A stretch of 64,000 bases of DNA. It comes from Escherichia coli (lineage in GTDB: Bacteria; Pseudomonadota; Gammaproteobacteria; Enterobacterales; Enterobacteriaceae). The notes beneath the pieces were generated by a model. The model made no database searches and was not told the origin of the DNA. It was given only the letters and a program-made list of their open reading frames with translations. Made by a program: the position numbers and the translations under genes. Positions 49,261 to 50,638 of this stretch are shown piece after piece; the first letter of the stretch is position 1; each line of letters begins with the position of its first letter. The stretch is taken from the NCBI RefSeq assembly GCF_050920415.1, contig NZ_CP169309.1; one strand, 5' to 3'.

Positions 49261-49270
49261 AATATTAACC

Positions 49271-49293
49271 ACTTTAGTTACAACATACTTTAT
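49271..49293 (-). other. Replication terminus site TerB (Tus-binding Ter site) in tus promoter region
   Basis: Minus strand reads AATAAAGTATGTTGTAACTAAAGT, containing the invariant Ter core GTATGTTGTAACTA; located 11 bp upstream of the tus start. Confidence 0.85.
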
Positions 49294-49336
49294 TTTATAG
49301 CACAGTATCGACAGCCTGACCACCGTGCGCGTAATG

Positions 49337-50638
49337 TCAAGCAGAGGTAAATTGCGGGATGTTATGCCATAACGGCCAGCTAAACGAGAAGCGGGCACCC
49401 CCCAGTTCGCTGGTGTCACAATTAACCGTACCGCCCATTGCTAGTGCTATAGAGTGGACAATCGCCAACCCCAGCCCGCAGCCGCCGGTTGAGCGATCCC
49501 GGCTGGGATCGAGGCGAACAAAAGGTTCAAAGATATGTTCGCGGTTTTCTGGGGCAATCCCTGGGCCATCATCCTCAACAATTAATGTCGCTCTATTTCC
49601 CGACAGTAGCAGGCTGGTTTCAACCGTTGAGTGACAGTAGCGCAGGGCGTTATTGAGCAAATTATCCAGCACGCGCTCCATTAAGCGCATATCCAACGCC
49701 GCATAATGGCCTTGCGCGAGCGTTTTAATCCGTACCGTTTTATCGGGCGTTACTGCCTGAATGTCTGCCAGATGCGTTGACAGCCACAACGGCAGGTCTG
49801 GTTCGCTAAGATGAAGCTCGTTTTGTGGGCGATCGAGTCGGGCATAAGTCAGCAACTCTTCAATTAAAGCTTCAAGTTGACTGATATCACGATTCAATGC
49901 CTGGGATTCGGCGGCGCTCAGGTTATCGCTCATTTCCAGTCGATAACGCAAGCGCACTAACGGCGTTCGCAGTTCGTGAGCGATTCCGTCAATAAGCTGT
50001 TTTTTGCTGGCGATCAAGGCGTTGATATTGTCCGCCATCTGGTTAAATGCGACACCAAGTCGTTCAAAGCTTGAATCCTCATCAAAGTGGATACGCTCAT
50101 TGAGATGCCCATCGCCAAATCGTTGCGCCGCTGCTTCCAGTTTTAACATATCCTGCCAGTGCGGACGCATCCAGATAAACACCGGAAAGGCGAGGGAAAT
50201 GGCAATAAAAGCGATTAGGGCGATATCCAGTAATCGCATCTGATGGAGGTAATAAAGATAAGGAACAGGACCAACTGCCAGCACGTAGTGGCTGCGCGGG
50301 ATGCGTTGCAAAAAAGTGTACTGATCGTCCAGGGCGACAATTTCGCCGCCACGCAGCCGGTGCATGGAAATATCATCAAGATGATATTTACTCAGCGGCT
50401 CGACACGCAGATCGAAAGAGAGATTTAAATCCATCTCTTTCAGCGTCTTACCCCAATCGTGTGGGGGGATCTCACGCAATTCGCTGCGCATCAGATACAG
50501 CGAACTGTTCATCAAATCATCCAGCGACTGTTTGCCCGCGCGTTCGGCGGTAAATTTGTACACCAGCCCAACCAGCAGAGACATCACAAGGAAGCAGACA
50601 AACAATAACAGGTAAAACTGGATAAACAGTTTTTTCAT
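49337..50638 (-). CDS. rstB: Two-component sensor histidine kinase RstB
   Basis: ORF track 433 aa; two TM segments, HAMP, H-box (AHELRTPL) and HATPase domain. Confidence 0.93.

Follow-up and report, generated by a model that had tools for sequence, protein, structure and literature searches.

The closest described system to the locus examined here is the TerB/tus pair of Escherichia coli K-12. TerB lies 11 bp upstream of the tus ATG (PMC8707476), and Tus autoregulates its own production through this site in the tus promoter (PMC8707476, PMC8347550), Tus-dependent repression of tus in K-12 going back to Roecklein 1991 and Natarajan 1991 (both as cited by PMC8347550 and PMC8707476). Tus binding and polar fork arrest have been demonstrated for K-12 TerB (PMC8707476, PMC4499146). 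The site forms strong locks and has the highest Tus ChIP-seq coverage, and its ectopic insertion failed in the non-permissive orientation, which is presumed to be lethal (PMC8707476). Fork arrest involves the C6 lock mechanism, in which a helicase approaching the non-permissive face exposes C6 and this base lodges in a cytosine pocket of Tus so that the complex locks; replisomes pause at A(4), just before GC(6) (PMC4499146). Position 7 of Ter is variable; more generally, base pairs 1-5, 7 and 19-23 differ between phylogroups, make little or no contact with Tus, and are not expected to cause a loss of function when changed (PMC8347550). Here we compare with this system the tus-proximal terminator found in a stretch of 64,000 nucleotides, hereafter the window, from E. 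coli MFDS1022581 (NZ_CP169399.1; window coordinate + 2,418,060 = record coordinate). A 20-kb query taken from the window matched this genome with 100% identity.

The tus-proximal Ter site and its neighbours

Within the 76-bp intergenic region separating rstB from tus, we identified a 23-bp Tus-binding site, 5'-ATAAAGTATGTTGTAACTAAAGT-3', at 49271..49293 on the minus strand, with Ter position 1 at 49293 and position 23 at 49271. The minus strand of this part of the window (49200-49400) reads ...TGA CATTACGCGCACGGTGGTCAGGCTGTCGATACTGTGCTATAAAATAAAGTATGTTGTAACTAAAGTGGTTAATATT ATG GCG CGT TAC GAT..., from the rstB stop into the first codons of tus. Ter positions 6-19 (GTATGTTGTAACTA; 49275..49288, minus strand) are an exact match and occur only once in the window, with no mismatch to the degenerate consensus GNRNGTTGTAAYKA. 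The conserved core at positions 8-18/19 (ATGTTGTAACTA) is intact, and the lock G-C pair at position 6 is present, G6 being located at 49288 on the minus strand and its partner, the lock cytosine C6, on the plus strand. When the K-12 TerB 23-mer was compared with the window, it likewise located 49271-49293 on the minus strand, where 21/23 positions agree in register and the mismatches fall at positions 2 and 3; allowing a 1-nt gap for an extra A, all of the K-12 bases (23/23) are recovered. Taken together, these features indicate that the site is almost certainly TerB, orthologous to the K-12 site and a replication terminator proximal to tus, for which Tus binding, locking and autorepression would be expected from the K-12 work.

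The initial annotation had described an invariant Ter core in the tus promoter, on the tus-coding strand and 11 bp upstream of the gene. Site and gene are both found on the minus strand, and the unique 14-mer stands in the same rstB-TerB-tus-fumC context as in K-12. The stated distance is right for the 23-mer, which is followed by a 10-nt spacer (GGTTAATATT; 49261..49270, minus strand) such that the ATG begins with the eleventh base, but it does not apply to the 14-mer core, with 14 nt between its end and the ATG. Although the core is present as an exact match, the word invariant was too strong, as position 7, a T here, is a G in many natural E. coli TerB alleles. A mismatch at a contact-critical position, such as the C6 equivalent, had been named as a point to check; comparison with K-12 TerB revealed none, with G6/C6 and positions 4-23 identical. 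The identification is correct, and the TerB/tus arrangement itself is already known.

Immediately downstream, tus (48331..49260, minus strand) is an intact open reading frame for the 309-aa DNA replication terminus site-binding protein. The RefSeq source record annotates it as tus and leaves the Ter site without annotation. The predicted protein is identical to K-12 Tus at 303/309 residues (98%) and matches crystallised Tus (1ECR, 2EWJ, 2I05, 2I06, 4XR0-3) with E = 6e-204. The six substitutions relative to K-12 correspond to residues 23, 27, 116, 119, 221 and 225, while E49, I79, F140, H144, G149, L150 and R198 are unchanged. These unchanged residues we take to be cytosine-pocket and pre-lock contacts, an assignment that in part follows the 2I06 work. 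R198 is also named in PMC8707476. On the 3' side fumC converges on tus, the two stop codons overlapping by 4 bp (48331-48334) as in K-12, and on the 5' side the neighbour is rstB (49337..50638, minus strand), which is encoded on the same strand as tus.

To place this organization among sequenced relatives, a 120-bp intergenic query was compared with 5,426 complete E. coli genomes. The query was matched in 5,422 of these, once in each, and had no match in the other 4; one of the matches resides on a record classed as a plasmid. Among the 30 matches listed with annotations, rstB and tus were both present in all but one, which is without rstB. Also observed was an insertion at this locus in E. 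coli KTa005 (NZ_CP147084.1), where ISEcp1 replaces the rstB side of the intergenic region. The ISEcp1 junction is located just upstream of the putative -35 element of tus discussed below and leaves the -10-like element, TerB and tus intact.

Position and polarity in the replication terminus

The presence of TerB had led the initial annotation to assign the window to the replication terminus region, with a check of GC skew over a larger contig suggested. For this analysis 250 kb beyond the window were added, giving 314 kb in all. The dif site is absent from the 64-kb window; an exact 28-bp copy was identified at record coordinates 2,588,691-718, 121 kb from TerB. TerC (ACATAGGATGTTGTAACTAATAT) is located at 2,570,302-315, on the same strand as TerB and 103 kb away from it, and no further consensus Ter site beyond TerB and TerC was found in the 314 kb. 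Between the two lies a lambdoid prophage of ~48 kb (NZ_CP169399.1 2,498,627-2,546,434) with integrase, dicB, Q antiterminator, terminase and tail genes and a strongly positive GC skew, which stretches the TerB-TerC distance to 103 kb. On the plus strand, the 171 kb leading up to dif have a GC skew of +0.047, or +0.031 when the prophage is left out, and the 143 kb that follow have -0.031, a change of sign near dif; the cumulative skew peaks ~30-50 kb past dif. Skew is positive across the entire window and does not switch there. Given the location of dif, the orientation of TerC and the GC skew, both the placement of the window in the terminus and the polarity of its Ter site hold. TerB and tus thereby fix the window on the chromosomal map, in the terminus region and on the fork-trap arm that carries TerC and TerB.

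TerB reads 5' to 3' on the minus strand, so that its position-1/C6 end points towards higher coordinates, the side of rstB, TerC and dif. As read from the sequence, this orientation fits a barrier open to forks entering the terminus and closed to those leaving it. Tus, encoded immediately downstream, would bind the 23-bp site as a monomer. [quoted passage not shown] Conversely, a fork arriving from the origin side, from low to high coordinates, would meet the permissive face and displace Tus. On this arm of the fork trap TerB would in this way serve as a reserve for TerC, and since most forks in normal cells would stop at or before TerC, TerB may seldom act as a barrier.

The additional adenine and promoter-operator spacing

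The 5' flank of the site had been noted to carry one A more than the familiar TerB sequence (AATAAAG for AATAAG). Alignment with K-12 BW25113 (...TATAAAATAAGTATG... in K-12, ...TATAAAATAAAGTATG... in the window) confirms this additional base. When K-12 and other E. coli are aligned with the window, it falls in an AAA run at 49289..49291 on the minus strand (AA in K-12), between the -10-like hexamer of the tus promoter and G6. In terms of the Ter register, it alters only positions 2-3, which read TA for AT, with A4, A5, G6 and the remainder of positions 4-23 as in K-12. Sequencing error was considered as the source and ruled out, because the run comprises only three bases and 261 independent complete genomes share the exact allele.

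Searches of the 5,426 complete E. coli genomes found the exact window-type 62-mer in at least 261 (~5%), compared with 2,178 for the exact K-12-type 61-mer and 451 for the exact ATTAAGG-type 61-mer (the ATTAAGGATG allele). At least two flanking haplotypes carry the +1 A allele, one being the window type and the other that of strain E686, whose rstB is annotated as frameshifted. When 10 E. coli alleles were sampled, none differed at G6, at positions 8-23 or in the 10-nt spacer to tus; variation was seen at positions 2 and 7 and, through the extra A, in the register of positions 1-3. One further genome, E. coli SCPM-O-B-8794, was found to possess a TerB with G22T (..CTAAATT) together with a synonymous change in tus codon 2. 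G22T may explain the ~600 complete genomes that were missed by 28-mer-seeded searches and found with 11-mer seeds. Natural variation of E. coli TerB can in this way be quantified: positions 1-5 and 7 vary, while next to no variation is seen at G6, in the spacer to tus or at positions 8-23, G22T of one recovered genome excepted. The allele with the extra A is a natural one of moderate frequency, and it leaves untouched every base known to matter.

The extra A lies at the junction of operator and promoter. An extended -10-like element, TGcTATAAA, was identified at 49294..49302 on the minus strand, its TATAAA hexamer (49299..49294) abutting Ter position 1. At 49317..49322 (minus strand), 17 nt upstream of TATAAA, the hexamer TGGTCA (4 of 6), picked out by eye, may represent a weak -35 element. 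A generic scan of 48200-49500 for sigma-70 promoters and terminators returned no promoter and no terminator; the promoter model demands a -10 hexamer that ends in T, and TATAAA went unseen because it ends in A. This negative result was not counted against a promoter, though the scan gave the candidate -35 no support either. The putative assignment of the tus promoter is founded on published work and on the fact that the -10-like element is conserved. Tus bound directly after this element would cover the expected transcription start, occlude RNA polymerase and repress tus. [quoted passage not shown]

Sequences further upstream differ more extensively. The presumed -35/-10 spacer at 49306-49316 (minus strand) reads GGCTGTCGATA in the window and AGTCACCACGA in K-12, corresponding to ~8 substitutions within 11 bp. 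With the 120-bp query, only 12/5,426 genomes were at least 99% identical to the window and most were ~91% identical, compared with 95-99% over 20 kb. Template switching was considered as the origin of the 11-bp patch and rejected, as no direct or inverted copy exists in the 47-52 kb stretch of the window; over the window as a whole, a search for other copies gave a single match, distant and with 3 mismatches. A perfect -35 hexamer, TTGACA, is also present at 49335-49340 (minus strand), where it contains the rstB TGA stop. At 35 bp from the -10-like hexamer it is too far away to pair with it, and TTGACA and CTGACA are both found at this place among E. coli alleles.

To examine spacing beyond E. 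coli, we scanned one genome per species with a gapped degenerate pattern that called for a Ter site 8-18 nt upstream of a MARYD-type start, which identified 25 Enterobacteriaceae tus loci. For 24 of the 25, the ATG after Ter opens a Tus orthologue of 309-310 aa with 59-98% identity, the 25th being too short to judge. A scan of the same genome set with an exact 30-mer gave no match, for which the likely cause is the combination of G22T and the tus codon-2 change in its one recovered E. coli. Ter position 23 is separated from the tus ATG by 10 nt in E. coli and by 9 nt in E. albertii, Escherichia sp. E1V33 and most Citrobacter; shorter spacers, of 7-8 nt, occur in some Enterobacter, Cedecea and Citrobacter. 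A TGnTAnnn[A/T] element was present at 23/25 loci and not found at 2; it precedes G6 by 3 nt in 11, by 4 nt in 11 and by 6 nt in Cedecea, the 3-nt gap being seen in C. freundii-complex-like Citrobacter loci and the 4-nt gap in Escherichia. The corresponding gap is 5 nt in the window and in E686, compared with 4 nt in all sampled E. coli without the extra A.

As far as can be read from these comparisons, a promoter-operator spacing longer by 1 bp is the only structural novelty of the +1 A allele. Because a 5-nt gap falls outside the 3-4 nt observed at 22/25 species loci, the strength of autorepression could differ. The allele could also represent an intermediate of two-step slippage. Its sequence TATAAAATAAAG equals K-12 with an A added in the second A-run, and equally the E1V33-like TATAAATAAAG with an A added in the first; gain of an A in the first run of TATAAATAAAG could have produced the window allele, and loss of an A from the second run could then have led to K-12 TATAAAATAAG, with the spacing restored. 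We regard as rather unlikely the proposal that the 5-nt spacing (3-4 nt in 22/25) measurably alters the set-point of Tus autorepression, which could in turn affect how much Tus these lineages contain and how fully their weaker Ter sites are occupied; the two-step slippage is put forward with the same reserve. The allele offers a natural test of how far spacing is tolerated, both in Tus autoregulation and in the approach to the C6 lock.

Alternative readings and comparison with known systems

The assignment as a TerB orthologue was weighed against other readings of the site. That a Ter-like string without function arose here by chance has a negligible probability, even though the 14-mer with 2 mismatches allowed finds at least one match in 19/100 shuffles of the window, and the degenerate consensus is matched elsewhere in the window by three strings with 1 mismatch each, at 27342-27355 (minus strand), 29139-29152 (minus strand) and 57387-57400 (plus strand). 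Including TerB these make 4 matches against 1.65 expected, a number reached in 4/100 shuffles. However, the exact 14-mer is contained in 0/100 dinucleotide-preserving shuffles, the 23-mer at up to 3 mismatches likewise matches none, and 5,422 E. coli genomes as well as 25 other species loci have the site in this same place directly upstream of tus; shuffles and conservation together refute a chance origin. The three 1-mismatch strings were themselves considered as further Ter sites and set aside, since all have changes in the core and are probably chance matches. It is also improbable, though less so, that the site acts essentially as a transcriptional operator, with fork arrest incidental because TerC, situated between it and dif, catches the forks. 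TerC, which has the same orientation, does lie closer to dif by 103 kb, and the tight coupling of Ter, -10-like element and start codon, conserved across genera, shows selection on how the regulatory region is arranged. [quoted passage not shown]

A further reading, which we consider very unlikely, takes the +1 A allele to be a weakened or pseudo-Ter that locks poorly, leaving the site mainly or only a tus operator in this lineage. Such a reading could draw on the in-register differences from K-12 TerB at positions 2 and 3, on the unusual spacing to the -10 element, and on the pausing of the replisome at A(4) before GC(6), by which the bases beside G6 are not wholly irrelevant (PMC4499146). 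Against it, positions 4-23, with A4, A5 and G6, are the same as in K-12 TerB, the same 23-mer constitutes the tus-proximal Ter of E. albertii, and the allele has become fixed in no fewer than 261 complete genomes, where it is found with at least two different flanking haplotypes. TerE (TTAAAGTATG...), a strong lock-forming site, has the same AAAG, which also counts against weakening. Positions 1-5, furthermore, are reported to make little or no contact with Tus and to vary freely (PMC8347550). The preferred reading remains an orthologue of K-12 TerB that would function both in polar fork arrest and in autorepression of tus.

Compared with known systems, the locus is closest to K-12 TerB (AATAAGTATGTTGTAACTAAAGT), with which it shares the rstB-TerB-tus-fumC order, positions 4-23, the strand, the 10-nt spacer, the TGcTATAAA element and the orientation relative to TerC and dif. 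K-12 differs in having one A fewer before G6, AT at positions 2-3, a -10 hexamer 4 nt from G6 and, further upstream, the 11 bp of promoter spacer described above. Other E. coli TerB alleles (AATAAGGATG..., ATTAAGGATG...) agree with the window in locus, G6, positions 8-23 and spacer (10 sampled) but possess G at position 7 and/or T at position 2 with no change in length. TerC (ACATAGGATGTTGTAACTAATAT) of the source genome resembles TerB in orientation, fork-trap arm, G6 and positions 8-20; unlike TerB, it is 103 kb closer to dif, lies away from tus with no regulatory role, and differs at positions 1-5, 7 and 21-23. In E. albertii NBRC 107761 the tus-proximal Ter is the identical 23-mer ATAAAGTATGTTGTAACTAAAGT, and Tus is identical at 294/309 residues, whereas the hexamer reads TATATA and is 4 nt from G6 (5 in the window), and the ATG follows after a 9-nt spacer (10 in the window). 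Since E. albertii carries this identical 23-mer, the site in the window contains nothing that nature has not already tried.
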